From: Gammaproteobacteria bacterium
GTDB taxonomy: Bacteria > Pseudomonadota > Gammaproteobacteria > UBA4575
Reading direction: 5' to 3'
Assembly (NCBI GenBank): GCA_965262455.1
Contig: CBDHFH010000003.1
Span: forward strand, 12,406 to 76,405
DNA: 64,000 nt
Of the stretch, positions 36 through 63,872 are shown piece after piece. The stretch's first letter is position 1; every line of letters begins with the position of its first letter. The notes under the pieces were generated by a model. It searched no databases. It was not told the DNA's origin and saw nothing but the letters and a program-made list of their open reading frames with translations. The position numbers and the translations under genes were made by a program.

Positions 36-1085
36 ATGAGTTCAAACCGACAACATCAAGACAACCAATCGATTTGTATTGTCCGGCTATCCGCCATTGG
101 TGATGTTACTCATATGTTGCCTATCATACACAGCATTCAAAAATTTCGCCCTTCTGCTCGCATTACATGGGTGATTGGCAAACTTGAATATAAACTGGTT
201 GGTGATTTAGCTAATGTAGAATTCATACAATTCGATAAACAATTAGGCTTACGCGCTTACAAGCAGGTGTTAACACAACTTGAGGGCCGCTCATTTGACA
301 TTTTATTAGCGTGTCAGGTATCCCTAAGAGCCAATATACTCAGTGCATTAATCCCGGCCAAACGCAAAATTGGTTACGATAAACAACGCGCTAAAGATTT
401 ACATAGTCTGATGATAAATGAGCATATCCCTACTGCCGATGTTCATGTGTTGGATTCTTTTTTCCAGTTTATTGAACACATTGGGATTCCACATAAAAAA
501 TTAGACTGGTCTGTACCAATACCTGAAGATGCCCATGAATTCGCTAAAACACATATCCCCAAACATTATCCTATCGTCGCCATTAGTCCATGCTCAAGTC
601 ACCCTCTAAGAAACTGGCATGCAGAAGGTTATGCAGCTGTGGCCAATCATGCGATGAAAAAACATCATGCAAAAATCATTTTATTAGGCGGCCCTAGCAA
701 ACTTGAGAGAGACTATGGAGAAAAAATCTCAGCCTTGTTGGATCAACCTGCAATCAACCTAATTGGCAAAGATACATTAAAAAAGCTGCTGGCAATTTTG
801 CAGCGCTGCACAGTATTATTGACGCCAGACTCGGGCCCAGCGCATATGGCGACATGTGTTAACATCCCGGTGATTGGATTACATGCTGCGAGCAATAGTC
901 ATAGAAGCGGCCCCTATCTGAGCCAAAATTGGTGTGTAGACAAATATGATAGTGCAGCTTTACGCTACTTAGGCAAACCTGCCGATCAAATTCGTTGGGG
1001 GACAAAAATAGAAAAACCCGGTGTAATGCAATTAATTCAAGCTGAAGACGTCATAATCAAGTTAGATCATTTACTCAAACAATAG
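36..1085 (+). CDS. ADP-heptose:LPS heptosyltransferase (glycosyltransferase family 9)
   Basis: 349 aa. GT9-like N-terminus (ICIVRLSAIGDVTHMLP) and C-terminal TPDSGPAHMA nucleotide-sugar motif. Sits in a locus with waaF, hldE and Kdo-kinase-like genes. Confidence 0.7.
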   Translation: MSSNRQHQDNQSICIVRLSAIGDVTHMLPIIHSIQKFRPSARITWVIGKLEYKLVGDLANVEFIQFDKQLGLRAYKQVLTQLEGRSFDILLACQVSLRANILSALIPAKRKIGYDKQRAKDLHSLMINEHIPTADVHVLDSFFQFIEHIGIPHKKLDWSVPIPEDAHEFAKTHIPKHYPIVAISPCSSHPLRNWHAEGYAAVANHAMKKHHAKIILLGGPSKLERDYGEKISALLDQPAINLIGKDTLKKLLAILQRCTVLLTPDSGPAHMATCVNIPVIGLHAASNSHRSGPYLSQNWCVDKYDSAALRYLGKPADQIRWGTKIEKPGVMQLIQAEDVIIKLDHLLKQ

Positions 1086-1095
1086 GTACCTACAA

Positions 1096-1482
1096 TTGCA
1101 ACTACTTGCTCCCATCTCGGTTGGTGAACTGATCGATAAAATTACTATTTTAAAAATCAAACAAAGCAAGGCCACCAACACGGAAAAACTCAAGAATATT
1201 GAGCATGAACTGGAACAATTAACCAGCACATGGAATCAGGCTAAAGCGCCCGGGTTGGATATTAGCGATCTGTTCAACCAGCTCACCGAGGTTAATCAGA
1301 CATTGTGGGATATCGAAGATGATATTCGTGCGAAAGAAGCCGCACAGATATTTGATGATGAATTCATTCAGCTAGCACGTTCCGTTTACATACAAAATGA
1401 TTTGCGCGCAGAACTTAAAAAACAAATCAACTTGCACTCAGGGTCAACCTTAGTTGAAGAAAAACTGTATCAAGAGTACTAG
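1096..1482 (+). CDS. hypothetical small helical protein (128 aa)
   Basis: ORF 10 nt downstream of the heptosyltransferase gene. No Cys, no signal peptide. Coding-like composition but no recognisable family. Confidence 0.45.
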   Translation: MQLLAPISVGELIDKITILKIKQSKATNTEKLKNIEHELEQLTSTWNQAKAPGLDISDLFNQLTEVNQTLWDIEDDIRAKEAAQIFDDEFIQLARSVYIQNDLRAELKKQINLHSGSTLVEEKLYQEY

Positions 1483-1628: not shown

Positions 1629-2336
1629 TCACGTCACTTGTTTTAGACGCTTATAAAAAGAGGCAATATACATAAACAAAAACATCGCTAATAAACACTC
1701 TTTGGTTTCTCCCGCTCTAATATCCAGTATATGCGGCACTGTCGTGTCAAATAATTTATATGCTTTCTCATGCAGGCTTACTAACACAGCTAATAAACAA
1801 GTGGGTATGTTGACGTATGTTGGCCATAACCAGGTATAAAATGAATCTGCTGATAACTGATTATTGCGTAATAAAAAATAGCACGGCACAAGTACGCCAC
1901 CCACGACAGCAGCAATCGTTAACAGCATCCGTGGCACCTGGTCCAACAGTGCGCTGGTATTATGCAAGTTTGTTTCGCCTTGATCGTTGACATCCATCCA
2001 ACCTTCGGGGGTTGCCCATCCAAACCAGTGTTGACCCCAGCTGATTTCCTCCCCCGCGTAATAAATACAGCCCACTACAAGTAACGTTAGCCATAACTTG
2101 AAAAACGGGAACTGAAACGATTTCATGTTCGTGATAGATAAAATGCCTAAAACAATCGCGATGGCTAATACTACAAATGTATAGTTCTCAATTATGCCTA
2201 ACTCACCATAGACGTATTGATCAGAATCAATGCTTATAATTCGCATCACATAGGGAAATAACGCCACCAACAAGGGTAGCCATAACCATAGCCACTTAGG
2301 CAAATCCAACAGAGGTTGATGTTGCATCATATGCAT
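1629..2336 (-). CDS. integral membrane protein, unknown function
   Basis: 235 aa with several hydrophobic segments (LWLWLPLLVALFPYV, FVVLAIAIVLGIL). Overlaps the downstream kinase-like ORF by about 10 nt, consistent with an operon. Confidence 0.5.
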   Translation of the reverse strand: MHMMQHQPLLDLPKWLWLWLPLLVALFPYVMRIISIDSDQYVYGELGIIENYTFVVLAIAIVLGILSITNMKSFQFPFFKLWLTLLVVGCIYYAGEEISWGQHWFGWATPEGWMDVNDQGETNLHNTSALLDQVPRMLLTIAAVVGGVLVPCYFLLRNNQLSADSFYTWLWPTYVNIPTCLLAVLVSLHEKAYKLFDTTVPHILDIRAGETKECLLAMFLFMYIASFYKRLKQVT

Positions 2337-2998
2337 TTACTCGCTTGTTTTGATAAATATTCCCAGTGTCTAAGACTGCGGTAGTCACGATGATTTTTAC
2401 TTCTTAAGCCTAACTTAAAGCCAATTGCCATAAAAGGATTGGGTGGACATAGATGCTGAGGCATTAAATTAAAGTCATATAATTTTGGCACCCAAACCCC
2501 CTTGGTGTCTTTGACTAAACGAATATTACCAGGGGGTATGTCCAAGTCATACAATCCCACCTTAGCCGCATGCTTAACAATATCATAACCGGCACGCAAT
2601 ACTTCCTTAGGTAATCCGCGACATTGTTGCATTAAATCTTCCAGCCAAATGCCTTCAATATATTCCTGCACAAACGCCAACACATAACCCTGTTCCGGTT
2701 TAATTAGTTGATATGGCTTAGCGACATATTGTTTCAACATATCAGTTTGATAGGCAAGCATATTCCGAGAAAATTCAAACTCTCCTATATTGACTTTATA
2801 TTGTGATTGATATTTTTCAATATACGCTTGCTTATAGACTTTAACTACAACTTGCTGCTCAAGATAATCTGCAAGAAACACTTGCGAGCGCCTTCCCTCA
2901 CCTAATGAATTTTTTATATTAATCTCTTTCGGCAGTGGTAATTGGGCCATGTTAGAATAGCTACTTAAGCGCTTGGAATGGCGCGCAAGTATATACAA
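2327..2998 (-). CDS. LPS kinase (Kdo/WaaP/RIO-like) family protein
   Basis: Gly-rich loop GEGRRSQVF, VVVKVYK lysine motif, DLDIPPGNIRL catalytic-loop-like segment and DFN motif. The true start may be the internal Met at about 2950. Confidence 0.5.
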   Translation of the reverse strand: MYILARHSKRLSSYSNMAQLPLPKEINIKNSLGEGRRSQVFLADYLEQQVVVKVYKQAYIEKYQSQYKVNIGEFEFSRNMLAYQTDMLKQYVAKPYQLIKPEQGYVLAFVQEYIEGIWLEDLMQQCRGLPKEVLRAGYDIVKHAAKVGLYDLDIPPGNIRLVKDTKGVWVPKLYDFNLMPQHLCPPNPFMAIGFKLGLRSKNHRDYRSLRHWEYLSKQASKCI

Positions 2999-3026: not shown

Positions 3027-3968
3027 ATGTCTTATAATGTCGGAATCATAGGCGCTGCTAGAAGACATCAAGGCACTGGGCCGTATATTGCGAGAAAATT
3101 CGCCCAGCTTGGACATAACATCGTAGGTATAGTGGGTACAAGCGAACAATCCACGCAACAAGCTGCGCAACATCTGCTTGAAAATTACGCCATAAAGACA
3201 GATGCCCACAGCAGCTTTGATCAGTTATGCCAGCAACAATCACTGGATATATTAGTCATTGCTTCACCGCCAAATACTCACTTAAGCTATTTAGAACAAG
3301 CGCTTGAATATGGCTGTCATATTTTTTGCGAAAAACCACTCTGGTGGCCTAGCAATCAAATAAGCAAAGAAAATTATTTATTAAAAATACAGCACATAAT
3401 TGATCGTGCCCGAGAACAACACTGTCTGGTGCATTTAAATACTCAATGGCCTTATACTTTAAAGGATTTTAACCAGCTATACCCAACAGCTATTAGCAAT
3501 AATCAGATTCATCAATTTGCCATGTGGCTCAGCCCCCAAAGTAGTGGTTCAAACATGCTAATTGATGCTGCCTCACATGGACTGAGTATGCTTTATCAAT
3601 TAGTCGGCAGTGGAGAATTAGACGATATCCAGGTCACTTCTAATGACAACAGTACTCGAATAAATTTTAGTTATAGGCATCAAGCTGGGCTGACAAACTG
3701 CGAATTGCTTTTTATACAATCCAATGAAACTCCCAAGCCCGCCAGCTATCAAATAAACGGCTGCTCAGTTAAACGTATTGTTGCGTTACCCGAGTACCAA
3801 ATTCAGTTACAATCCGAGCAACAGATAACTACGATACATGATCCACTGGACGCATCCATTGAAGACTTTTTGGCGTCTATCGATGCCAGCATAGAAATTG
3901 ATGACATTGCATTAAGTCTCGGTGCCAGGCATCTGTATAAATTGATCGAATATTTTAACAAGAGCTAA
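3027..3968 (+). CDS. Gfo/Idh/MocA family NAD(P)-dependent oxidoreductase
   Basis: Rossmann N-terminus MSYNVGIIGAARRHQG with EKPL motif. Start trimmed to the ATG at 3027; the ORF track begins at 2973. Confidence 0.7.
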   Translation: MSYNVGIIGAARRHQGTGPYIARKFAQLGHNIVGIVGTSEQSTQQAAQHLLENYAIKTDAHSSFDQLCQQQSLDILVIASPPNTHLSYLEQALEYGCHIFCEKPLWWPSNQISKENYLLKIQHIIDRAREQHCLVHLNTQWPYTLKDFNQLYPTAISNNQIHQFAMWLSPQSSGSNMLIDAASHGLSMLYQLVGSGELDDIQVTSNDNSTRINFSYRHQAGLTNCELLFIQSNETPKPASYQINGCSVKRIVALPEYQIQLQSEQQITTIHDPLDASIEDFLASIDASIEIDDIALSLGARHLYKLIEYFNKS

Positions 3969-3970
3969 CC

Positions 3971-5365
3971 ATGGAAAAAATTCACTCAGCTGATGGCGAA
4001 GTGCTAATGGAGATTTCTCCATTAATAGACTTCCGCAAGAAAAATAACATTAAGTCTAGTTTGTCTGTTATTGAGGCTCCCTTGCATGCGAAAAACAATC
4101 AAGATGCACACAAAGATAAGCAGGTCGAGTTATCGCCTATTCATGATTTTTCTGCCAAATTGCGTCAACCCTCTATTATAAATACTTTAAAAGAATATGT
4201 GTTATGGCAAGCCAAGTGGCGCAATGCCTATTCTGCAGGGCAATCAATTGATGAAATACTGGAACAAGTACCCAATCATGCTCCGCTGTCTATCAATTTA
4301 GATGTCACTACCGCATGTAATTATCGTTGCGATCACTGCGTTGATATGGATATTTTGAACACTGGCATTCGTTATGATCATGAGCAGTTAAAAGATTCAC
4401 TGACGACACTAATCAATAGAGGTTTACGTTCCGTGATTATTATCGGTGGCGGCGAGCCCACCGTGTATCCGGGTTTTGCTGACATCGTTCGACACCTGAA
4501 AGCACACGATATACAAATAGGTGTGGTCACGAATGGCAGTCGTATGGATCGAGTTGCTGAGGTTGCAGATGTGCTTACCAAAGGCGACTGGGTGAGGTTA
4601 TCGTTAGACTCAGGCGATAACGAGACCTTCCGAGCTATGCATAAGCCTGTCAGCAAAAAAGTCACGCTAGACTGGATTTGCTCACATATACCTGACATTA
4701 AAAAAATAAATGCAGATTTTCAAATTGGTTATAGTTTTATTGTCGTATGGAAAGACTGCGAAGCTAACGACACTGAAATTATTGATAACACTGACGAAAT
4801 TGTTGAAGCGGCTGAACGTGCTAAACAATATCAATTTGATTATATCTCCTATAAACCTTTCCTAACACGCGCAGAAGAAAATAACGCTGAAGTTGTCAAC
4901 CTCACTCAGGAAGAAAATTCGATTGATAGCATATTGAAGAAGATACGCACCGCAATCGATGCAACAAAATCGCTAGCAAGTGATGACTTTGCTGTCATTG
5001 AGAGTACAAATCTTCGCGTGTTAGAAAATGGCAGTTATAAAGACTTTATTGACCAGCCTAGCACTTGTCATATGCAGTATTTCCGCCAGGTGCTCAGCCC
5101 ATTAGGTGTATTCAACTGTCCGGTTTACCGCCATGTCCCGCAAGCATTACTTGGTGGCAAACATGAATACCAAAACGAAGACAGCTTCAAAGAAACACAA
5201 AAAAATACTTTAAGACTTATAGAAGCGTTTGATGCTAATTACGAATGCCGTAATGTCACATGCTTATATAATCATGCCAATTGGTTGATTGAAGACTTAA
5301 TTCGTCATCCAGAAAAACTGGACTCGCTGACACCCTCTGAAGAACGCCACGATTACTTTCTCTAA
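3971..5365 (+). CDS. radical SAM domain protein
   Basis: CNYRCDHC (CxxxCxxC) motif near residue 115, GGGEPTVYPGF SAM-binding motif, VTNGS. C-terminal extra Cys cluster (C..NCPVY..YECRNVTC). 464 aa. Confidence 0.75.
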   Translation: MEKIHSADGEVLMEISPLIDFRKKNNIKSSLSVIEAPLHAKNNQDAHKDKQVELSPIHDFSAKLRQPSIINTLKEYVLWQAKWRNAYSAGQSIDEILEQVPNHAPLSINLDVTTACNYRCDHCVDMDILNTGIRYDHEQLKDSLTTLINRGLRSVIIIGGGEPTVYPGFADIVRHLKAHDIQIGVVTNGSRMDRVAEVADVLTKGDWVRLSLDSGDNETFRAMHKPVSKKVTLDWICSHIPDIKKINADFQIGYSFIVVWKDCEANDTEIIDNTDEIVEAAERAKQYQFDYISYKPFLTRAEENNAEVVNLTQEENSIDSILKKIRTAIDATKSLASDDFAVIESTNLRVLENGSYKDFIDQPSTCHMQYFRQVLSPLGVFNCPVYRHVPQALLGGKHEYQNEDSFKETQKNTLRLIEAFDANYECRNVTCLYNHANWLIEDLIRHPEKLDSLTPSEERHDYFL

Positions 5366-5421: not shown

Positions 5422-7299
5422 TTAAAATTCTTCCCAATCATCATCAACAACATCGCTGCCGGCAGCCATCTGCACTTCAGCAGGATTTGCTTGCTCAGCA
5501 CGATTGTTAGACCAAGGGCGATCGCTTGAACGGCGCTCTACACCTTTATTAGCAGGTGCAGCTTGGGACATTTCCATATGAGCTTTCATCTTAAAGAAAC
5601 TCACAATGCGATTTAGCTCACTACTTTGCTCTGACATAGATTCGGCGGCGGCCGCGGCTTCTTCTACCATTGCGGTATTCTGCTGGGTGGCTGTATCCAT
5701 TTCAATAATGGCTTTATTGACCTGCTCGATGCCTTGGGCTTGCTCCTGAGTTGCTGATGAAATATCACCGACAATTTCAGCCACTTGACGCACACTCTGC
5801 ATAATTTCTTCCAACGTTTCGCCAGATTGATTGACTAATTGGCTGCCATCAGTGACTTTTTGCACACTGTCTTCAATCAGCTCTTTAATTTCTTTAGCGG
5901 CTGTTGCACTTCGTCCAGCAAGATTACGCACCTCAGTAGCGACGACTGCAAATCCACGTCCCTGCTCCCCAGCGCGTGCCGCTTCAACTGCTGCGTTTAA
6001 TGCTAGCAAGTTAGTTTGGAAAGCTATTTCATCTATCACACCTATGATATCTGAGATCTTATTACTCGATTGGTTAATCTCATGCATTGCCGAGATTGCT
6101 TTGTTTACCACATCTCCGCCAGTAGATGCCTGGTCACGTGCATCAATCGCAAGTTGATTGGCCTCTTTAGCATTATCAGCATTTTGTTTTACGGTGCTGG
6201 TCATTTGCTCCATGCTGGCTGAGGTCTCTTCTAGGCTTGCGGCCTGAGATTCAGTACGACGACTTAAATCTAAATTACCCCGTGATATCTCTTCAGCACC
6301 TGCATTGACAAGTTGGCTGGATTCTCTAATTTGTAAAACAATATCACTAATTTTTTCACAATAACTATTGACGACATTCTTAAGCTTATCAAATTGCCCT
6401 ACATAATTACCATCGACACGCTGATCAGTGTTACCTTCAGCTAAGCTCAACATAACAGAGCTGACTTCTTTTAAGATTGACTCAACAGAAATCTGCATTT
6501 GTTTTTGTTGCGTTATATCGCTGGCAAATTTGATGACCTTGTATGGGTTACCATCAAGATCCAATACTGGGTTATAGGACGCTTGAATCCAAATTTCATT
6601 ACCTCCTTTGGCGACCCGCATAAATTCACCGGCCTGATATTCGCCAGCATTCAAACTTGCCCAGAACTCTCTGTACTCATTACTATTTGCAGTTTCTTGA
6701 TCTACAAACATTCTGTGATGCTTGCCTTTAATTTCATTTAACTGATAACCCATGGCACCGAGAAAGTTATCATTCGCGGTTATTATTGTGCCATCCAAGT
6801 TAAACTCAATAACTGCTTGCGATCTGTAAATTGCATCAATTTTGGAAGAGTTGTTTAAGTTTTCAAATTTTCTTTGTGTCACATCAGTGGCGTATTTAAC
6901 CACCTTGTAAGGTTGACCATTCTCATCAAAAATAGGGTTGTAGCTCGCTTGAATCCAAATTTCGTTACCACTTTTAGTAATGCGTTTAAATTGCTTCGAA
7001 GAAAATTCACCAAGATTAAGGGAAGCCCAAAATTCTTTATACTCATTGCTATTTGCAGTGTCTCTGTCTACAAACATTGAGTGATGTTGTCCTTGAATTT
7101 CATCTAAGCGGTAGCCCATGGCACTCAGAAAATTTTCATTCGCATTAATAATAGTGCCATCCATATTGAATTCTATGACTGCTTGTGACCGCCCGATAGC
7201 TTCAACTTGGCCTTTGTAATCAATCAATTCTCGTTTCAATTGATCAATTTCACTTTTATGACTTGTTCTCATTAATGCGTTCATCATAGCGCCCATCAT
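5422..7299 (-). CDS. soluble methyl-accepting chemotaxis protein with two tandem PAS domains
   Basis: 625 aa, no TM segment. Two roughly 75% identical PAS units. C-terminal MCP signalling domain ([24 protein letters not shown]). Ends in DWEEF, a CheR-tethering-like pentapeptide. Confidence 0.85.
6490..7215 (-). repeat. tandem duplication (about 375-bp unit) encoding the two PAS domains of the MCP
   Basis: Protein units [30 protein letters not shown]... and [30 protein letters not shown]... are near-identical. Mirrored plus-strand shadow ORFs at 6499..6741 and 6874..7080 are also similar to each other. Confidence 0.7.
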
Positions 7300-7549: not shown

Positions 7550-8528
7550 TTACACTCTATCAATCACTGCCTTAAATACTTGCTCTGGTAGTATATCTTT
7601 AAGACAACGATAGTGATTATAACGACACGTACGCTGCCAACATGGACTGCATTCCAATTTCATATAAAACGTTTTCGCCTGCGCATGTAATGGCGGCGTA
7701 TACACTGGCGTAGTCGCTCCATACATGGCAACCACAGGCACATCCACAGCAGCAGCAATATGCATCAGTCCCGAATCATTACTCACTGCAACACTACAAC
7801 TTGCCAATATATCAATGACATCCAGCAAACTGGTCTTACCGCATAAATTCATCACCGGTTGGCGGCATAACTTCTGTATCTGATCTCCTATTGCGGCATC
7901 TTTTTGTGAGCCGAGAATACAAACTTCCAGACCTTGTTCAACCAGCTTATCTATTAACTTAACAAAGTGCTCAATTGGCCATTGTTTGGAAGGTCCGAAT
8001 TCCGCGCCAACCATACAAGCAATCAGTGGGGCCTGCTGTGGAATGTTATGGTAAGCAATTAACTTGCGTTGATTTTGACTGTCAATTATCAGTTCGGGCG
8101 CGTATGTTTTTTTTTACCTCGGTGATATCTACTTCGATACCTGCATGACGCAAATAATTACACACCGTTGGGATGCTTTTACTTTTGTTAGAACTCAGCA
8201 CATGATTAATTAATCCATGTCGGAACTCTCCCAGTTCACCCACTCGTCGGGGGATGCCAGCCAGCACTGGCACCAGCGCTGATTTATATGACCTAGGCAG
8301 CACCAGTGCTTGAGTAAATGATTCAGCACGTAATGTTACCCCCAGTCGATAACGTTTACTCAAGCCAAACTCCCCATGAGCAACTTCTAACGCATGCACT
8401 TTAGTGATCTCAGGCATACGTTCGAGTAAAGCGCGAGACCATGCAGGCGCTACCACATGTATTTGGGCTGAGTTAGAATGAGCGGCAAGCGCTTTATATA
8501 GTGCTTGCGCCATAACCATATCACCCAC
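7550..8528 (-). pseudogene. waaF: ADP-heptose:LPS heptosyltransferase II (WaaF/RfaF), split by a -1/+2 frameshift inside an A9 tract
   Basis: The N-terminal ORF (8082..8528) ends ITEVKKNIRARTDN*. The C-terminal ORF frame, read back across the tract, gives KKTYAPELIIDSQNQRKLIAYHNIPQQAPLIACMVGAEFGPSKQWP, matching the conserved WaaF segment before the GAEFGPxKxWP motif. Confidence 0.7.
8107..8115 (-). repeat. homopolymeric tract (T9 on plus, A9 in the coding strand) at the waaF frameshift point
   Basis: Read directly: cgtatg-ttttttttt-acctc. A8 or A11 would restore one full-length WaaF ORF. Confidence 0.9.
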
Positions 8529-8588: not shown

Positions 8589-9479
8589 GTGTTTATACCT
8601 AGCCATCTTCAGCAATCAGCTAAACCCTATGCATTAGGCAAGTACGTGATTCACCCTGCGCATACAAACAACGCCAAACTGGAACAGTGGATTAATGATA
8701 TCCAGTTTGAATATTGTGAAACTCCAGCAAATCGCATGCAATTACATAGCCGCAAAAGAAATAATTTATATTCATTTCATCTTGATGCAATAGATAAACC
8801 TGTGGTACTCAAAGTCTCGCAAATTTCCGCACATTATCGCTGGTACCGAAAGTTAAATTTAATGCTGGTTGGTTTATTTAAAAATTATAGCTTAAATGCC
8901 TATTATGGTGGCATCGCATTAGAAAAAATAAATATAGATAGTATAAAAGTGATTGCACATTGGACATGTAAACACCTGGCTGAAAGTGAAAAATCTTATT
9001 TGCTGTATGAAAAGGTACCGGCTTCTATGTCAGTGTTCGATTTATGCCATGAATTAACTGAGAAAAATCCTAATGCTAAAGAGATCATTCGTCGTATTGC
9101 ATTATCACTTGCGAATATCATTAAAACATTACACCAACATAATATCCGCCATGGTGACCCTCATGCAGGTAATTTTCTGCTCCGCTCATCTGTTACTGAG
9201 CTAGGTCAACTCACACCCGAGGCAGTGACTGATATGAAGTTTACATTAATCGATTTAGATAAAGTGCACTACGCTGACAAAGAAAAGCCCTGGCGCAAGA
9301 AAATTTATGATATTCGCTGCATACGACGATTTTATGTGCATGACTTAAATAGCCAGCAATGCTTACACTACTATTTAGGCAGAAAACCTAAATTAAGCGA
9401 AAAGTTGATTTTATGGTTTTGGCTTAAAGGCGGGTTTAATATCTACAAATGGCTTAAGAGCAGTAAAAAAAGAAATTAA
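8589..9479 (+). CDS. lipopolysaccharide kinase (Kdo kinase/InaA/WaaP family)
   Basis: HGDPHAGNFLL and IDLDKV motifs typical of the Kdo/WaaP kinase family. 296 aa. Divergent from waaF. Confidence 0.6.
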   Translation: MFIPSHLQQSAKPYALGKYVIHPAHTNNAKLEQWINDIQFEYCETPANRMQLHSRKRNNLYSFHLDAIDKPVVLKVSQISAHYRWYRKLNLMLVGLFKNYSLNAYYGGIALEKINIDSIKVIAHWTCKHLAESEKSYLLYEKVPASMSVFDLCHELTEKNPNAKEIIRRIALSLANIIKTLHQHNIRHGDPHAGNFLLRSSVTELGQLTPEAVTDMKFTLIDLDKVHYADKEKPWRKKIYDIRCIRRFYVHDLNSQQCLHYYLGRKPKLSEKLILWFWLKGGFNIYKWLKSSKKRN

Positions 9480-9879: not shown

Positions 9880-11280
9880 TTAATGTTTATCTACAATCGA
9901 TGAAATAATATTACTGGTTGAGTAGCCCTCAACAAACCGAATAATCTTAACCTCTCCACCACGCTGCATGACATATTCCGCGCCGACCACTTGATCCGGC
10001 GTATAATCACCACCTTTCACTAACACATCGGGATTCAACTCGCGAATTAACTTTTCTGGCGTGTTTTCATCAAAACTGACTATCCAGTCGACACTAGAAA
10101 AATAAGATAACATCTCTGCGCGATCATGTAGTGTATTTATTGGTCGTCCTTCACCTTTAAGTTGCTGAACAGATTGATCTGAGTTCAATGCCAAAACCAA
10201 CATGTCACCCATGGACGCGGCCTCACGTAGTAAATGTGCATGCCCTTTATGCAGCACATCAAAACAGCCATTTGTAAACACCACCGTATGTTGCTTTGCA
10301 TGAGCATCCAAGATGCGTTTAGTTAAAAAGTCACGACTCACCAATTTGCTATTCGGCGATTCATAGCTGAGCATACCGTGTGCAAGTTCTTCGGCTGATA
10401 AGGTTGCCGCACCAAATTTACCCACGACAATACTTGCAGCCACATTGGCAACATAAGCCGCCTGTTTAAAATCGCCATCAGAGGCAAGACTCATGGCAAA
10501 TGCAGAAATAACTGTGTCGCCTGCACCTGTGACATCATAGACTTCACGCATTTGTGCTGGGAAATTTGTCACCGCACCATCTTGCATGATCAATGTCATG
10601 CCTTTTTCGCTGCGCGTGATTAACAATGCTTCAAAATTATATTGTTGACATAAATGTTGTGCTTTTTGATAAATGTCTTGTTCCGACTCACACTCTCCAA
10701 CCACTGCACAAAACTCAGAATAATTTGGCGTCACTACTGATGCATTTTTATATTTGGCAAAATCAGTGCCTTTTGGATCAACAATAACTCTTTTATTATG
10801 TTTAAGTGCATTTTGAATAACTGCTTGCGCATCATCAAGCACACCTTTGCCGTAATCAGATAATATAACAATCGCACAATTTTCAACGACAGCAGAAAAT
10901 CTTTGCTGAATATCCGGCAAACTAACGTGGGCTTGATCATCAAAATCCAAGCGGATAAGTTGTTGGTTGCGACTAACTATCCTGATTTTCGAGGTTGTAC
11001 GAATATCAGGATGAGAACATAACTTGCATTCAATATTTTCTTTATCCAATAATTTTTGTAAGGCGACACCCTCTTGGTCTTCACCAATCGCACCGAGCAA
11101 CGTTACTTTAGATCCCAGTGCACTTATATTCTGCGCAACATTTGCCGCACCACCGGCTCTATCATGTGTCTCATTAATTCTTGCCACGGGCACGGGTGCC
11201 TCAGGCGAAATTCGATCAGCATCCGCATGCCAATATCGATCCAACATGACATCACCAACAACTAGTACATGAACATCCAT
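9880..11280 (-). CDS. hldE: bifunctional D-beta-D-heptose 7-phosphate kinase / heptose 1-phosphate adenylyltransferase
   Basis: N-terminal ribokinase-like domain (VLVVGDVMLDRYW, GAANVA). C-terminal cytidylyltransferase domain (TNGCFDVLHKGH). 466 aa. Confidence 0.9.
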   Translation of the reverse strand: MDVHVLVVGDVMLDRYWHADADRISPEAPVPVARINETHDRAGGAANVAQNISALGSKVTLLGAIGEDQEGVALQKLLDKENIECKLCSHPDIRTTSKIRIVSRNQQLIRLDFDDQAHVSLPDIQQRFSAVVENCAIVILSDYGKGVLDDAQAVIQNALKHNKRVIVDPKGTDFAKYKNASVVTPNYSEFCAVVGECESEQDIYQKAQHLCQQYNFEALLITRSEKGMTLIMQDGAVTNFPAQMREVYDVTGAGDTVISAFAMSLASDGDFKQAAYVANVAASIVVGKFGAATLSAEELAHGMLSYESPNSKLVSRDFLTKRILDAHAKQHTVVFTNGCFDVLHKGHAHLLREAASMGDMLVLALNSDQSVQQLKGEGRPINTLHDRAEMLSYFSSVDWIVSFDENTPEKLIRELNPDVLVKGGDYTPDQVVGAEYVMQRGGEVKIIRFVEGYSTSNIISSIVDKH

Positions 11281-56626: not shown

Positions 56627-57604
56627 ATGAACCATACGACCGATGAACGTGCTGCGTTATTACACGCATGGATTAGTCGACATTATCCGATAGTAGAAAA
56701 TTCATTCATGAGTGTTTCAGGCGATGCAAGTTTTCGTCGCTATTTTAGATTTACAGTCGAACAAACTGATGGATCAGACAATCTCAGTCTGATCGCAGTT
56801 GATGCTCCGCCTGAATTAGAAAATAGCCAGCCATTTCTGGACATTGCGCAATTACTCGCTACCAATAATTTATCGGTACCGATTATTTATGAGCATGATT
56901 TACAGCAAGGCTTTTATATTCAACAAGATTTTGGTGATCAATTATTACTTGATTTATTAAACGGCAATTCAGTTGATAGTTTTTACCAACAGGCAATGCA
57001 AGACATTGCACACCTACAGCATGTCGAGTGTGATCAGTTGCCCTTGTATAACTCACAACTGCTGCATAGAGAAATGAATTTATTCACTGAGTGGTACCTA
57101 GCAAATCACTTAAATGTCACGCTTAATGAAATAGAAAAAAAATGTTTACAGGCTTGTTATCAATTATTAGAGGCTAATGCTGTCGAACAACCACAAGTAT
57201 TTGTTCATCGGGATTATCATTCAAGAAATCTAATGGTGCTGGATAACAACACACTTGGCATGATTGATTTCCAGGATGCAGTGAAGGGCCCGATTACTTA
57301 TGACTTAGTATCATTGCTTAGAGACTGTTACATCGCTTGGCCACAGGATAAAATTAATCAATGGTTAAGTTATTTTCATACCTATATTGTTAGTGCGATT
57401 CCAATCGATACTTTCACGCGTTGGTTTGATCTTATGGGTATGCAACGCCACCTTAAAGCAACCGGTATATTTTGTCGCTTACACTATCGTGACGACAAGC
57501 CGGGTTATCTTAATGACATCCCCCGCACGATGAATTATATCAAACAAGTTAGCGCAAAGTATCCTGAACTGAACGAGTTTAATCAGCTAGTGAGCAAGTT
57601 GTGA
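56627..57604 (+). CDS. amgK: N-acetylmuramate/N-acetylglucosamine anomeric kinase (aminoglycoside-phosphotransferase fold)
   Basis: APH/ChoK fold (VHRDYHSRNLMV, IDFQDA). Overlaps and precedes a MurU-like gene. Confidence 0.65.
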   Translation: MNHTTDERAALLHAWISRHYPIVENSFMSVSGDASFRRYFRFTVEQTDGSDNLSLIAVDAPPELENSQPFLDIAQLLATNNLSVPIIYEHDLQQGFYIQQDFGDQLLLDLLNGNSVDSFYQQAMQDIAHLQHVECDQLPLYNSQLLHREMNLFTEWYLANHLNVTLNEIEKKCLQACYQLLEANAVEQPQVFVHRDYHSRNLMVLDNNTLGMIDFQDAVKGPITYDLVSLLRDCYIAWPQDKINQWLSYFHTYIVSAIPIDTFTRWFDLMGMQRHLKATGIFCRLHYRDDKPGYLNDIPRTMNYIKQVSAKYPELNEFNQLVSKL

Positions 57605-58272
57605 AAGCCATGATATTAGCTGCAGGGCGAGGCGCTCGACTAAGTCCGCTCACCGATAAAATCCCCAAGCCTTTAGTCAAAGTCGGTCATGATACTCTTA
57701 TTGAGCATCATATAAGGAAGCTTGCAAAAGCAGGCTTCGAGAGCATTGTGATTAACACTGCGCATTTAGGCGAAAAAATTCGCAGTCACCTTGGAGACGG
57801 AGAACAATACGGTATAGCCATCGAATATTCCGATGAAGGCGAGCAGGCACTAGAAACCGCAGGCGGCATTGCATACGCACTGCCACTACTGGGTAAGCAA
57901 CCATTTTTAGCGATTAGTTCAGATGTGTATTGCGATATTCCCTTTGATACACATTTCCAGCTAAAGCAGAGTCGCATGCACTTAATTATGGTGAACAATC
58001 CGCCACATCACCCCAATGGAGATTTTAATGCGCAAGAAATTAATCTCGATAGTGCACCAGAGCTACGCTTTACTTACAGTGGCATCGCTTACATTAACCC
58101 TAACTTATTTACTCATGAGAAAAAAACTTACCCACTTATTGACGTCATTAAGCAATGCATAGAAGAAAATACCATTAGTGCCGACTTATATGAGGGCAAA
58201 TGGATTGATGTAGGGACTATCGATCGAGTGCATGCAGCCAATAAAGCAGCAATGAAAATTGGAGCACATTAG
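57601..58272 (+). CDS. murU: N-acetylmuramate alpha-1-phosphate uridylyltransferase
   Basis: Nucleotidyltransferase motif MKAMILAAGRGARLSPLTDKIPKPL. 223 aa. 4-nt overlap with amgK. Confidence 0.7.
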   Translation: MKAMILAAGRGARLSPLTDKIPKPLVKVGHDTLIEHHIRKLAKAGFESIVINTAHLGEKIRSHLGDGEQYGIAIEYSDEGEQALETAGGIAYALPLLGKQPFLAISSDVYCDIPFDTHFQLKQSRMHLIMVNNPPHHPNGDFNAQEINLDSAPELRFTYSGIAYINPNLFTHEKKTYPLIDVIKQCIEENTISADLYEGKWIDVGTIDRVHAANKAAMKIGAH

Positions 58273-58295
58273 CCCCAAATAGGTCAATATATAAT

Positions 58296-58320
58296 GACCG
58301 CTTTCGACCCAAAGCAGACA
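58296..58320. repeat. possible degenerate copy of the 25-bp island repeat (12 of the first 12 nt identical, then divergent)
   Basis: AATGACCGCTTTcgacccaaagcagac, versus AATGACCGCTTTtgcgctgaaaacggact at 61820. Lies 20 nt after the murU stop, at the left edge of the AT-rich islet. Confidence 0.3.
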
Positions 58321-58381
58321 TTTATGAGTCATTACAATATTATGTATTTTTGTTATTAAATTCTTTTTAAAGTCGAATAAT

Positions 58382-59290
58382 ATGAATAAATATATACTAA
58401 TTGTACTTGGGATATTTATTCTTACTGGGTGTGGCGAATCCTATACAGTTCCTAGAGCTACATTTCATATTGATTTAAATAATCCCGATGAAGCAAAAAA
58501 ACTCTCTTTACAAATGAATGAGTTTTTGCTTTCTGAGGGGTTTGAGGATTTAGGAATTTATGAAGAAATGATTGATTTACTCTCGCACAATGGTGCAAGA
58601 GATGAATACAATATGAAGGACATATATGACGACCAGATTCAGAGAACTAGATTAGAGAGAAACTATATAAACAGAACTAGAAAAATAGATGTGATGATAA
58701 CCGACTACTCTGATCCTGAACTAAAAAAGCGATATGTCAATTATCCTACATCTGAATCTACAATTACTGACCTACCATCACTGGAAGTAAATATTCATAA
58801 TATGCGTCCTGGTGGTTTCTCTGCTGATGCGCTTCTTTTTTATGAAAAATTTCATTCGCTTATTAAAAGCAAACATGACGGTGATATAAATATTGTGTTT
58901 AGCCCACCAAAATCTGATCAAAAAGAATTTTATAGGATTAGCGCAAAGAACTTTATTGGAAAAATTTTTAATTGGTTAGTTGTATTTGCCGTGTCGATTA
59001 CAATATTTGGTTTAATAATTATCAAATTGTTGAAACTAACCAAACTAAATATATTGCAAAAACGAGCAATATTCGGTATTTCTGGCTCAATCTTATCAAC
59101 TCCCTTGCCATTTCCGATTGCTACAATATTTACAACCTTATTACCGAGTGTGTTAGCAATACCTCTAATTGGATCAGACTATTTCTCAAGAATAGCTGAT
59201 GTGGGAATTAAATCATTTTTAGTTTGCTTTTCCTTATGCGCGATACTATCGGTACTTCTCATTAAAGAAAAGAAAACAGCTGGCGAATGA
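58382..59290 (+). CDS. lipoprotein with a C-terminal polytopic membrane domain
   Basis: Lipobox LTGC. Soluble N-terminal region. Four hydrophobic helices in the C-terminal third. Very AT-rich codon usage. Confidence 0.55.
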   Translation: MNKYILIVLGIFILTGCGESYTVPRATFHIDLNNPDEAKKLSLQMNEFLLSEGFEDLGIYEEMIDLLSHNGARDEYNMKDIYDDQIQRTRLERNYINRTRKIDVMITDYSDPELKKRYVNYPTSESTITDLPSLEVNIHNMRPGGFSADALLFYEKFHSLIKSKHDGDINIVFSPPKSDQKEFYRISAKNFIGKIFNWLVVFAVSITIFGLIIIKLLKLTKLNILQKRAIFGISGSILSTPLPFPIATIFTTLLPSVLAIPLIGSDYFSRIADVGIKSFLVCFSLCAILSVLLIKEKKTAGE

Positions 59291-59462
59291 CCTCTAATGC
59301 GCCGATAGGCGACATTAAACTTCTAGAAAAAATATAATTAAAACATAGATTTATATATATGCTATTAACATCATATAAAATATTTAATATTTTTGATAAA
59401 TACTTAAAGAAAAGTATATATACTAAAAGAGTACTCTTAATCTGATCACATGGTGAATTCTG

Positions 59463-61823: not shown

Positions 61824-61847
61824 CCGCTTTTGCGCTGAAAACGGACT
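61823..61847. repeat. 25-bp direct repeat, copy 1 (ACCGCTTTTGCGCTGAAAACGGACT); overlaps the stop codon of the FG-GAP gene
   Basis: Identical 25-mer recurs at 62801..62825. Contains an imperfect hairpin CCGcTTTT-gcgctg-AAAACGG. Confidence 0.85.
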
Positions 61848-62000
61848 TAATTTGAGTAGGTTCAATAAATTTATAACTGAGGATACTTTCTTAATAGATT
61901 AGCGTGTACATTACAAAGTGATATTAATAGTTTCATTTTTCATTGAGAAGTTTGTAAGAGGTATCGTTGCTACATAGAATTACACTAAATTTTAAAAACT

Positions 62001-62936: not shown

Positions 62937-63872
62937 CTATTGCCGACTCTCTGCGGCTTGTTGATCCGCGTGATATGACGACCGCACCATGGGTCCACTA
63001 GCGACATTGGCAAATCCCATTGCAAGCCCCTCTTCTTTCAGTATGTTGAATTCTTCGGGTGTTACATAACGCATCACAGGTAAATGATGTTTTGATGGTT
63101 GCAGATATTGACCGAGCGTTAACATATCGCATTGATGTTCACGCAGGTCGCGCATGACTTGCCTGACTTCATCTAACTGTTCGCCTAAACCCAGCATAAG
63201 ACCTGACTTGGTAGGGATATGAGGATTGTCTAGTTTGAATTTGTTAAGCAAGTCGAGCGACCATTGATAATCTGACCCTGGCCGGGCTTGTTTATATAAT
63301 CGCGGAACCGTTTCTAGATTATGGTTAAACACATCAGGCAACTGTGGTTGTAACGCTGTTAATGCTCTGTCCATTCGGCCACGAAAGTCTGGTACAAGCA
63401 CTTCTATTTTTATATCTGGATTCAATCTGCGTACGTGTTCGATACATTTCTGAAAATGTGTCGCACCACCATCCTTTAGATCATCTCGATCCACTGATGT
63501 AATAACCACATAATTAAGCTGCATTAATTTAATTGTTTCTGCCAGCTTACGCGGTTCTTCTTCATCAGGAGGTTGAGGCCGACCATGAGCGACATCGCAA
63601 AATGGACAACGGCGTGTACATAAGTCGCCAAGTATCATGAATGTCGCCGTACCATGGGCATAACATTCATTTAAGTTAGGACAAGACGCTTCTTCGCATA
63701 CGGTATATAAATCATGTTGTTTAATAAGCTTTTTTAAATGCGAAACTTTGTCAGAGTTAGTAATCTTGATACGTATCCAATCCGGCTTGCGCAATACAGC
63801 ATCTGACGGTAGTACTTTTATGGGAATGCGCGAGACTTTTTCCGCACCTCGTTGTTTTTGATGACTACCCAT
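62937..63872 (-). CDS. lipA: lipoyl synthase
   Basis: Radical-SAM CxxxCxxC (CTRRCPFC) plus the N-terminal auxiliary-cluster Cys motif ([12 protein letters not shown]). 311 aa. Confidence 0.9.

Follow-up and report, generated by a model that had tools for sequence, protein, structure and literature searches.

Why should a radical SAM enzyme lie in an LPS core locus? The heptose of the LPS inner core is activated as ADP-glycero-manno-heptose, and we know of no radical SAM or Gfo/Idh/MocA step in the canonical pathway that provides it, nor of radical chemistry in inner-core assembly; neither did the literature searched describe such a step in the ADP-heptose pathway, or the present system. The stretch of DNA analyzed here (64 kb, referred to throughout as the window) comes from an uncultured marine bacterium and carries, inside its LPS core locus, a two-gene operon that encodes a Gfo/Idh/MocA-family oxidoreductase (hereafter Gfo) and a radical SAM protein, surrounded by waaF, hldE, GT9 and Kdo/WaaP-kinase genes. 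The reading that we favor, with a probability of roughly 0.6, is that the two proteins are a dedicated two-enzyme unit that modifies ADP-glycero-manno-heptose through a carbonyl and its subsequent reduction, and that the product is a deoxy- or epi-heptose. The genes of the locus are the following.

36-1085, plus strand: divergent GT9 glycosyltransferase, heptosyltransferase-like (PF01075, 128.8 bits)
1096-1482, plus strand: DUF6165 protein, small accessory gene of the core locus
1629-2336, minus strand: membrane protein of 235 aa, small accessory gene of the core locus
2327-2950, minus strand: kinase-like protein of 207 aa, divergent from the Gfo gene
3027-3968, plus strand: Gfo/Idh/MocA-family NAD(P)-dependent oxidoreductase of 313 aa (PF01408), proposed carbonyl reductase partner
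3971-5365, plus strand: radical SAM enzyme of 464 aa, uncharacterized family (PF04055), proposed ADP-heptose-modifying enzyme
5422-7299, minus strand: cytoplasmic PAS-PAS-MCP chemoreceptor (Pfam matches)
7550-8528, minus strand: waaF (LPS heptosyltransferase II), convergent with the radical SAM gene, frameshifted
8589-9479, plus strand: Kdo/WaaP-family LPS kinase (PF06293, 34.3 bits for a cutoff of 21.3)
9880-11280, minus strand: hldE, bifunctional heptose-7-P kinase and heptose-1-P adenylyltransferase (NF008454, 620.6 bits for a cutoff of 521)

A first-pass annotation of this DNA had described a 464-aa radical SAM protein 3 nt downstream of a Gfo/Idh/MocA gene, within a block of heptosyltransferase, hldE and Kdo/WaaP-type kinase genes. 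Profile matches confirm the block, and the length, the gene order and both family assignments stand; the spacing does not, as 2 nt separate the TAA stop of the Gfo gene from the ATG of the radical SAM gene. The hldE product supplies ADP-heptose, and no hldD is found within the 64-kb window. The GT9 gene at 36-1085 reaches none of the HepI, HepII and HepIII cutoffs of the NCBIfam profiles and accompanies the locus in gammaproteobacterial clades; it is a candidate for the transferase of the modified heptose. The three small genes in 1096-2950 likewise co-occur with the locus in relatives. A frameshift within a homopolymer of 9 bases (8107-8115; the tblastn frame change falls at 8106-8113) interrupts waaF in the window, and the intact orthologue of a related locus (L001, 11432-12400) scores 348 bits on TIGR02195, for a cutoff of 134.6. 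Of the close relatives, only some share the chemoreceptor gene that separates waaF from the radical SAM gene, and L001 lacks it: it is a lineage-specific insertion, outside the pathway.

The Gfo open reading frame starts at the ATG at 3027 and ends at 3968, while the mechanically called frame reaches back to a TTG at 2973. Its product scores 61.6 bits on PF01408 (GFO_IDH_MocA, cutoff 24), and it has the N-terminal Rossmann fold, the EKP motif and the downstream Asp/His of the Gfo/Idh/MocA family. Residues conserved in at least 90% of 82 orthologues comprise G9, R12, Q15, G16 and G18 of the nucleotide loop, C101-E-K-P104, D180 and H184; EKP, which contains the catalytic Lys, D180 and H184 are the catalytic residues of the family. 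None of the named NCBIfam subfamily cutoffs is reached, and the closest named models, those of inositol and UDP-GlcNAc 3-dehydrogenases, are all far under cutoff.

The second protein scores 75.1 bits on PF04055 (Radical_SAM, cutoff 29.5). It displays the sequence and fold features of the radical SAM superfamily, namely CxxxCxxC, GGE and, in an AF2 model, alternating beta/alpha elements, and it is predicted to cleave SAM reductively to the 5'-deoxyadenosyl radical. Three elements of the gene are relevant here.

4316-4339, plus strand: CxxxCxxC (C116/C120/C123), predicted to hold the [4Fe-4S] cluster of radical SAM enzymes, without variation in both alignments, A1 and A2, and across 275 members of the family
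4445-4462, plus strand: GGGEPT (residues 159-164, G159-T164), the 'GGE' element for SAM binding, with no variation in A1 and A2
5066-5263, plus strand: Twitch-like auxiliary-cluster domain, C366-x12-G379-x3-C383, helix, C426-x4-C431

Conservation among the 275 family members is 100% for each of four cysteines of the C-terminal region (C366, C383, C426 and C431), 96% for C237 and lacking for C263. The radical SAM core begins at about residue 105; in the extension that precedes it, residues 55-100 form helices conserved family-wide, and residues 1-50 are largely restricted to gammaproteobacterial members. The AF2 model (m1fc86e1d24ef; pLDDT 87, pTM 0.90) was built on an 87-sequence alignment, an alignment of 19 sequences having given a pLDDT of 64. 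It places C366 before a beta-hairpin (372-376/379-381), C383 after it, and C426 and C431 after a helix (403-419). A Twitch domain consists of a C-terminal beta-hairpin followed by helix alpha2', with cysteines on both sides of the hairpin and beyond the helix, and holds one auxiliary cluster (PMC6231123). In the model, the C-terminal region has this layout, of the BtrN type, and is predicted to bind such a cluster. The first-pass annotation had pointed out CxxxCxxC and GGEPT motifs, extra C-terminal cysteines suggestive of an auxiliary cluster and an N-terminal extension of roughly 110 aa; all were recovered.

To which family does this protein belong? At Pfam, NCBIfam and PADLOC cutoffs, neither it nor ten distant relatives fall into a specific family, and no curated family cutoff was reached. 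The first-pass annotation had advised profile searches, and had held that a well-characterized non-sugar family combined with a lack of conserved linkage to LPS genes would count against its proposal; neither applies. The best NCBIfam match is viperin (NF038283), with 66.6 bits for a cutoff of 180 over model positions 2-163 of 281. Similarly, PADLOC pVip gives 70.5 bits over positions 1-161 of 257, and the profile search of the PDB a viperin match with an E-value of 3.6e-9; the C-terminal extension of viperins and pVips is unmatched, which places the protein outside that group. Nor is it a MoaA (GTP 3',8-cyclase), as it scores 54.6 bits on TIGR02666 for a cutoff of 284, and its family has four conserved cysteines as against the three-cysteine, open-iron-site auxiliary cluster of MoaA. 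SPASM domains are recognized by seven cysteines (CX9-15GX4C...CX2CX5CX3C...C) and two auxiliary clusters; here the conserved C-terminal cysteines are four, CX2CX5CX3C is missing and PF13186 is unmatched. Pfam searches detected neither an N-terminal B12-binding domain nor a HemN-type C-terminal domain, and what extends the protein at the N-terminus is about 50 residues of conserved helices; a C-methyltransferase, cobalamin-dependent (class B) or HemN-like, was rejected on these grounds. We also rejected a defence viperin, given the partial match, the biosynthetic context and the presence of the Twitch domain.

Searches of the PDB by sequence and profile matched the N-terminal half of the core only, to viperin, YydG, MoaA and SkfB. 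The family profile detected neither BtrN nor DesII in the PDB, and the C-terminal half matches no solved enzyme by sequence; the single protein gave a weak match to DesII (E 0.008) and none to BtrN. By structure, the top Foldseek matches of the model are DesII, then SkfB and BlsE, and SuiB, CteB and anSME are also among the matches. DesII and BlsE are radical SAM enzymes of nucleotide- or nucleoside-sugars. Each word-index search retrieved about 1,900 to 2,400 related proteins at an E-value of 0.001 or better, and those at 1e-30 or better form 115 clusters at 50% identity. The protein is a member of a large, as yet uncharacterized family. That it could be a Twitch/SPASM peptide or cofactor maturase (SkfB, SuiB or PqqE type) which lies in the locus by chance is highly improbable: SkfB, SuiB, CteB and anSME do figure among the Foldseek matches, along with several weak NCBIfam maturase matches, but no RiPP recognition element, precursor-peptide gene or seven-cysteine SPASM motif was seen and PF13186 is unmatched, and it is a sugar-type oxidoreductase that is conserved as its partner, with heptose genes as the recurrent neighbors.

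Conservation of the oxidoreductase-radical SAM pair next to LPS genes had been named as a further check, and the pair proved to be widely conserved. Of 88 loci, 80 have a Gfo gene as the immediate upstream neighbor of the radical SAM gene; among the 27 most distant loci the figure is 24. These counts were made by tblastn with a limited query panel and by clustering of all open reading frames, among loci that are not phylogenetically independent. The pair is found in marine Gammaproteobacteria, Planctomycetota, Nitrospiraceae and Acidobacteriota, and all relatives come from metagenomes or uncharacterized genomes. Its recurrence in 80 of the 88 loci and in several phyla places the pairing above chance. 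In addition, at least six proteins, whose fusions are independent of one another, join the two in a single chain with the Gfo domain N-terminal (P0122, P0126, P0135, P0146, P0446 and P0480). Because of the 2-nt spacing, the upstream position of Gfo in so many loci and these fusions, we consider that the two proteins are one functional unit.

The radical SAM family also has a conserved genomic linkage to ADP-heptose genes across independent lineages. In three Planctomycetota loci (L059, L064 and L080), a true hldD, scoring 316 to 384 bits on TIGR02197 (cutoff 274.6), is directly upstream of the Gfo-radical SAM pair, and hldD lies within 5 kb of the pair in two others (L004 and L054). Three proteins, mutually 63 to 66% identical, are fusions of an HldD-like domain to the radical SAM protein (P0125, P0392 and P0393); one of them is surrounded in L091 by a gmhA-hldC fusion, hldA, a gmhB-like gene and a GT9 gene. 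Elsewhere, gmhA abuts the radical SAM gene (L068 and L070), a true waaF is convergent with it in gammaproteobacterial loci, and an HldC-like adenylyltransferase gene is the sole other recurrent neighbor in the distant loci. Among 16 lineage clusters defined at 70% identity, eight carry a gene of the heptose pathway or for a GT9 enzyme at a distance of up to 8 kb, and eight have no heptose gene in the flanks examined; the latter include Candidatus Uabimicrobium, where the pair stands alone. The first-pass annotation had proposed a modified heptose or a Kdo-like sugar: heptose is supported by this linkage, the context favoring heptose, with ADP-heptose as the level of action, over Kdo, and the reaction itself is a matter of inference, to which we return below. 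A hint of a free nucleotide, and not a sugar, as substrate comes from a single protein on a 3-kb contig, in which Ham1 (XTP/dITP pyrophosphatase) and the radical SAM protein are fused.

This last fusion bears on the possibility that we are dealing with a viperin- or MoaA-like enzyme acting on a free NTP, or on another nucleotide sugar such as CMP-Kdo, the LPS position then reflecting a loose clustering of envelope genes. The best sequence matches are indeed to viperin (66.6 bits in NCBIfam, 70.5 bits for pVip, E 3.6e-9 for the PDB profile). Nevertheless, these are confined to the N-terminal half of the core and stay far under the cutoff of 180, a four-cysteine Twitch domain takes the place of the viperin C-terminal extension, the Ham1 fusion is a singleton, and linkage to hldD, hldC, gmhA and GT9 genes is seen in unrelated phyla and in Patescibacteria that lack a Kdo context. 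We regard this alternative as distinctly unlikely.

Very unlikely, in our view, is that the pair replaces HldD, with the radical SAM protein dehydrogenating C6'' of ADP-D,D-heptose and Gfo performing a stereo-inverting reduction, so that the product would be ordinary ADP-L,D-heptose and no new sugar would arise. The window without hldD is in keeping with this, as is the resemblance to HldD of the SDR part of the radical SAM fusions P0125, P0392 and P0393. Moreover, hldD of E. coli sits beside waaF, a position comparable to that of the pair here. Against this stand the bona fide hldD genes in the Gfo-radical SAM operons of L059, L064 and L080 and within 5 kb in L004 and L054: where hldD is in the same operon or near the pair, the two coexist and there is no substitution.

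The identity of the partner is informative as to the chemistry. In L091, an aldo-keto reductase gene overlaps the HldD-radical SAM fusion and Gfo is missing; in L092, a relative from Patescibacteria, an adh_short ketoreductase is followed by an HldC-like gene and a GT9 gene. Members of the aldo-keto reductase and adh_short families normally run reductively. The partner family changes while the function is kept, with Gfo, AKR and SDR interchanging, and it is this swap of the reductase from Gfo to aldo-keto reductase or adh_short that argues for a carbonyl formed first and reduced second. In L090 and L091, genes for DegT aminotransferases lie beside the HldD-radical SAM fusions, in parallel with the known pairings of a radical SAM enzyme and an aminotransferase in DesII/DesV and BtrN/BtrS. 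A 318-aa neighbor of an HldD-radical SAM fusion was considered as a diverged Gfo and rejected, no similarity being found.

In the pathway that we infer, from its substrate and sugar position to the enzyme order, the carbonyl formation and the choice between dehydration and dehydrogenation, HldE would yield ADP-heptose together with an HldD encoded elsewhere in the genome. SAM would be cleaved at the CxxxCxxC [4Fe-4S] cluster, and the resulting 5'-deoxyadenosyl radical would abstract hydrogen from the heptose, at a carbinol carbon. The substrate radical could then reach a carbonyl by two routes: by shedding the adjacent hydroxyl (1,2-diol dehydration as in AprD4, or elimination as in DesII), or by being oxidized via the fully cysteine-ligated Twitch auxiliary cluster (dehydrogenation as in BtrN). 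Gfo, with NAD(P)H, would reduce the carbonyl, to a deoxy-heptose after dehydration or to an epimeric heptose after dehydrogenation, and the GT9 enzyme of the same locus may attach the modified heptose.

The order of the two enzymes might also be reversed, with Gfo first oxidizing the nucleotide sugar, one hydroxyl of which becomes a ketone, and the radical SAM protein then acting on the keto-sugar (skeleton rearrangement, ring contraction, C-C bond formation, or epimerization beside the ketone). Gfo comes first in the operon and its domain is N-terminal in the fusions, so that context alone is compatible with Gfo acting first; many Gfo/Idh/MocA enzymes are sugar dehydrogenases, and the nearest named models are the inositol and UDP-GlcNAc 3-dehydrogenases mentioned above, albeit far under cutoff. 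We nonetheless hold this order to be unlikely, as Gfo is replaced elsewhere by the normally reductive aldo-keto reductase and adh_short enzymes, and as full ligation of the Twitch cluster typifies enzymes that oxidize the substrate radical themselves (PMC6231123).

If carbonyl formation followed by reduction is correct, a conserved radical SAM and reductase step adds a new reaction, and probably a new sugar, to ADP-heptose biosynthesis. A broader proposal, for which we see about even odds, is that the family defines a previously unrecognized radical branch of the ADP-heptose pathway, widespread in abundant uncultured marine Gammaproteobacteria and in Planctomycetota and extending to LPS-less Patescibacteria. 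Its product would be a heptose so far undescribed from this route, either a deoxy- or epi-heptose or, where DegT replaces the reductase, an amino-deoxy-heptose, built by GT9 enzymes into the inner core or into other glycans. The family occurs in ecologically important and mostly uncultured lineages, and a change to ADP-heptose or to the core heptose could have effects on the properties of the outer membrane, on phage receptors and on how ADP-heptose is recognized as a signal by innate immunity. For enzymology, the family would provide a new and tractable radical SAM enzyme of the Twitch type, with a proposed nucleotide-sugar substrate, a built-in redox partner and natural fusions.

How does the pair compare with known systems? 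By sequence profile, the closest relatives are viperin and the pVips, the similarity covering the N-terminal half of the core. These are NTP 3'-deoxy-3',4'-didehydro synthases, which carry out a radical dehydration on a nucleotide-linked sugar; unlike them, the present family has a Twitch domain in place of the C-terminal extension and lies in a biosynthetic context, not one of defence. By structure, DesII (PDB 8HZV and 8HZY) is the best match, with a Foldseek E-value of 5e-11 over about 390 to 410 aligned columns, although the similarity is modest, at about 16% identity and a TM-score of about 0.49. DesII is a TDP-4-amino-4,6-dideoxy-D-glucose deaminase/dehydrogenase, whose 3-keto sugar product is used by a DegT-family aminotransferase. 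To our knowledge it is described with a single cluster, unlike the present family with its conserved four-cysteine Twitch site. BtrN, a 2-deoxy-scyllo-inosamine dehydrogenase, converts a carbinol to a ketone that is used by the DegT-type aminotransferase BtrS. The predicted Twitch domain resembles that of BtrN in its four cysteines, one before and one after the beta-hairpin and two after helix alpha2'; however, the substrate class differs, about 50 residues of conserved helices extend the present family at the N-terminus, and BtrN is absent from the sequence and profile matches in the PDB and from the top 50 Foldseek matches.

In gene logic, the likeness is to AprD4/AprD3, a radical SAM 1,2-diol dehydratase and an NADPH-dependent reductase that perform the C3'-deoxygenation of apramycin (PMC5461906). 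As in that system, the two genes are side by side, and a radical SAM enzyme making a keto-sugar would be followed by a nicotinamide reductase that finishes the reaction; the likeness here is in gene logic alone. The substrate of AprD4 is an aminoglycoside pseudodisaccharide of secondary metabolism, whereas that proposed for the pair is a nucleotide-activated heptose of the envelope. Finally, it is in the canonical ADP-heptose pathway (GmhA, HldE or HldA/HldC, GmhB and HldD), together with GT9 enzymes, that the pair is embedded, its genes being fused or adjacent to those of the pathway in several phyla.

The Gfo/Idh/MocA oxidoreductase (Gfo) and the 464-aa radical SAM protein (rSAM) form a conserved unit, and our main conclusion is that this pair probably acts on ADP-heptose, the building block of the LPS inner core, to which we assign a probability of about 0.8. 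The whole case for ADP-heptose modification is built on comparison and prediction. The pair lies in the following neighborhood:

36-1085, + strand: divergent GT9
1096-1482, + strand: DUF6165
1629-2336, - strand: membrane protein, 235 aa
2327-2950, - strand: kinase-like protein, 207 aa, no Pfam family
3027-5365, + strand: the pair
3027-3968, + strand: Gfo, ATG at 3027 (the mechanical ORF reaches upstream to TTG 2973), PF01408
3971-5365, + strand: rSAM, 464 aa, PF04055
5422-7299, - strand: PAS-PAS-MCP chemoreceptor, cytoplasmic
7550-8528, - strand: waaF (heptosyltransferase II), frameshifted
8589-9479, + strand: Kdo/WaaP-family kinase
9880-11280, - strand: hldE (620 bits, cutoff 521)

The first-pass annotation had placed the pair in an LPS-core locus and described a CxxxCxxC cluster and a GGEPT motif in rSAM. 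Both descriptions hold: GT9, waaF, the Kdo/WaaP-family kinase and hldE surround the pair, Gfo scores 61.6 bits on PF01408 (cutoff 24) and rSAM 75.1 bits on PF04055 (cutoff 29.5), the latter with the motifs C116-x3-C120-x2-C123 and G159-GGEPT-164. The sole correction to the observation concerns the spacing, put at 3 nt: 2 nt separate the Gfo TAA stop from the rSAM ORF.

Several features of the window are of interest in themselves. The DUF6165, 235-aa membrane and 207-aa kinase-like proteins co-travel with the divergent GT9 in gammaproteobacterial core-LPS loci. A frameshift at a nine-base homopolymer (8107-8115) divides waaF into ORFs 7550-8014 and 8082-8528; a slipped-strand switch, a pseudogene or a sequencing error could account for it, and relatives have one unbroken 322-aa waaF (L001:11432-12400). 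Because only some close relatives carry the chemoreceptor gene between rSAM and waaF (present in loci L005, L006, L008, L010 and L015, missing from L001, L007, L009, L011 and L013), we regard its insertion in the core-LPS locus as recent. Elsewhere lie a second, unrelated radical SAM ORF (311 aa, 62937-63872, - strand; PF04055, 71.5 bits), an APH-type kinase overlapping an NTP_transferase (56627-58272, + strand), which looks like an AmgK/MurU-type sugar-recycling pair, and a low-GC patch (58000-62000, GC 0.34-0.38) in which a 302-aa ORF draws no Pfam hit and 59463-61823 encodes a 786-aa protein of FG-GAP/TSP3 repeats.

A genome scan for rSAM returned 80 loci, nearly all from metagenome-assembled genomes (MAGs): marine Gammaproteobacteria labelled Thiotrichales, Ca. 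Porisulfidus, Ca. Oxydemutator and Acidiferrobacterales, many Planctomycetota, Ca. Uabimicrobium among them, and one MAG each of Nitrospiraceae and Acidobacteriota. In a clustering of every ORF up to 6 kb from the rSAM gene, Gfo was the sole near-universal neighbor: in 80 of 88 loci, which are phylogenetically non-independent, it is the gene immediately upstream. Among the 27 most distant loci, 24 show the same order. Intergenic gaps are mainly -4 to +20 nt, at least six natural Gfo::rSAM fusions exist (proteins P0122, P0126, P0135, P0146, P0446 and P0480), and the Gfo partners retain the nucleotide loop, the EKP motif and the Asp180/His184 pair. It is possible that Gfo acts before rSAM, but in other lineages the partner is swapped for AKR and KR-type reductases, which argues against that order.

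All other recurrent neighbors of the pair are ADP-heptose genes or GT9 transferases; linkage to waa/LPS genes recurs in other genomes. In gammaproteobacterial loci, the gene convergent with rSAM is a true waaF (348-402 bits on TIGR02195, cutoff 134.6). In distant loci, the sole third recurrent gene encodes an HldC-like heptose-1-P adenylyltransferase (163-177 aa; 137-170 bits on rfaE_dom_II, slightly below the cutoff of 181.5). The gmhA gene adjoins rSAM in L068 and L070, and a bona fide hldD directly precedes the pair in Planctomycetota L059, L064 and L080 (316-384 bits on TIGR02197, cutoff 274.6); in L004 and L054 hldD is no more than 5 kb away. With true hldD in the same operon at three loci, replacement of HldD by the pair is unlikely. 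In three proteins with 63-66% mutual identity, the radical SAM domain is fused to one resembling HldD; around one such fusion, L091 holds a gmhA-hldC fusion, hldA, a gmhB-like phosphatase, GT9, a DegT aminotransferase, an F420-type oxidoreductase and an aldo-keto reductase overlapping the fusion's end, and L090 resembles it. In a distant relative from Patescibacteria (P0161) the order is rSAM, adh_short ketoreductase, HldC-like gene, unknown gene, GT9. After loci were collapsed at 70% radical SAM identity, 8 of 16 lineage clusters had a GT9 gene or one of the heptose pathway no more than 8 kb away, neighbors being detected by tblastn with a limited query panel; several of the other eight are single loci, one of just 4 kb.

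L090 (10001-13243) and L091 (8283-14998) also contain extra radical SAM genes (BlsE-like, 303 aa; SPASM, 350-357 aa), a Methyltransf_21 gene, an F420-type LLM oxidoreductase and DegT aminotransferases, which together suggest a more elaborate heptose-derived product.

The rSAM family is large (two word-index searches gave 1,858 and 2,381 proteins at E 0.001 or better, and 115 clusters at 50% identity reach E 1e-30 or better), and profile searches assigned rSAM to no curated family (Pfam, NCBIfam, PADLOC); ten more distant relatives also fell under every family cutoff. The top NCBIfam match was prokaryotic viperin (66.6 bits, cutoff 180), and PADLOC pVip models gave the same pattern. A viperin-like enzyme acting on free NTP would fit this partial core similarity and a lone Ham1 (XTP/dITP pyrophosphatase)::rSAM fusion (P0123, 712 aa), a singleton that ADP-heptose modification leaves unexplained; we found no other support for it. 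An APH-kinase::rSAM fusion in a more distant relative (P0257, 786 aa) is likewise unaccounted for. In PDB searches by sequence or family profile, the matches to viperin, YydG, SkfB, MoaA and BlsE were confined to the N-terminal core.

The extra C-terminal cysteines had been taken to suggest an auxiliary cluster, a view that the family strengthens: across 275 members the three radical SAM cysteines and C366, C383, C426 and C431 are 100% conserved (C237, 96%; C263, not conserved). In a cofactor-free AlphaFold2 model built on 87 diverse homologues (pLDDT 87, pTM 0.90), C366 precedes and C383 follows a beta-hairpin (372-376/379-381), and C426 and C431 come after helix 403-419. The four are arranged as in the Twitch domain of BtrN, and a cluster is predicted. 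The proposed N-terminal extension of about 110 aa is present as 105 residues; 55-100 form conserved helices family-wide, but the first 50 or so are mostly restricted to gammaproteobacterial members. A peptide maturase is unlikely, as no recognition element, precursor gene or seven-cysteine SPASM motif turned up.

Constant across loci is rSAM with a nicotinamide-dependent carbonyl reductase (Gfo, AKR, classical SDR or fused HldD-like SDR) among ADP-heptose genes, one branch adding a DegT aminotransferase. In the chemistry we propose, rSAM would take a hydrogen from a carbinol carbon of the heptose; a carbonyl would arise by loss of the neighboring OH (dehydration, as in AprD4/AprD3) or by oxidation of the radical via the Twitch cluster (dehydrogenation, as in BtrN), and the partner would reduce or transaminate it, yielding a deoxy- or epi-heptose or, where DegT is present, an amino-deoxy-heptose. 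We consider this order, carbonyl then reduction, somewhat better than an even bet and, within it, slightly favor deoxygenation over epimerization. The exocyclic C6-C7 diol is, speculatively, an attractive site of attack, given that an HldD-like domain is the fused partner and that HldD works through a 6''-keto intermediate.

Literature searches returned no paper tying a radical SAM enzyme to ADP-heptose or LPS core synthesis. Among known systems, viperin matches rSAM over the first half of its model only, far under cutoff. No solved structure is close; by Foldseek the nearest is the TDP-sugar deaminase/dehydrogenase DesII (E 5e-11 over about 400 aligned columns), followed by SkfB, BlsE, then SuiB, viperin and MoaA, so that two nucleotide- or nucleoside-sugar enzymes, DesII and BlsE, are among the nearest structures. 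DesII is the best structural match but a modest one (TM about 0.49), and its weak match to the single rSAM sequence (E 0.008) was not confirmed by the family profile. BtrN, undetected in PDB sequence and profile searches, shares the four-cysteine arrangement, which there fully ligates one auxiliary [4Fe-4S] cluster thought to oxidize the substrate radical (PMC6231123, the SkfB paper). AprD4/AprD3, in which a radical SAM diol dehydratase works with an NADPH reductase (PMC5461906), resembles the pair in combining a radical SAM enzyme with a nicotinamide-dependent reductase, dehydration being a proposal for the pair. Twitch radical SAM enzymes that act on sugars alongside a reductase are a known type; what is new is the proposed substrate pathway, the rSAM family itself and its breadth.
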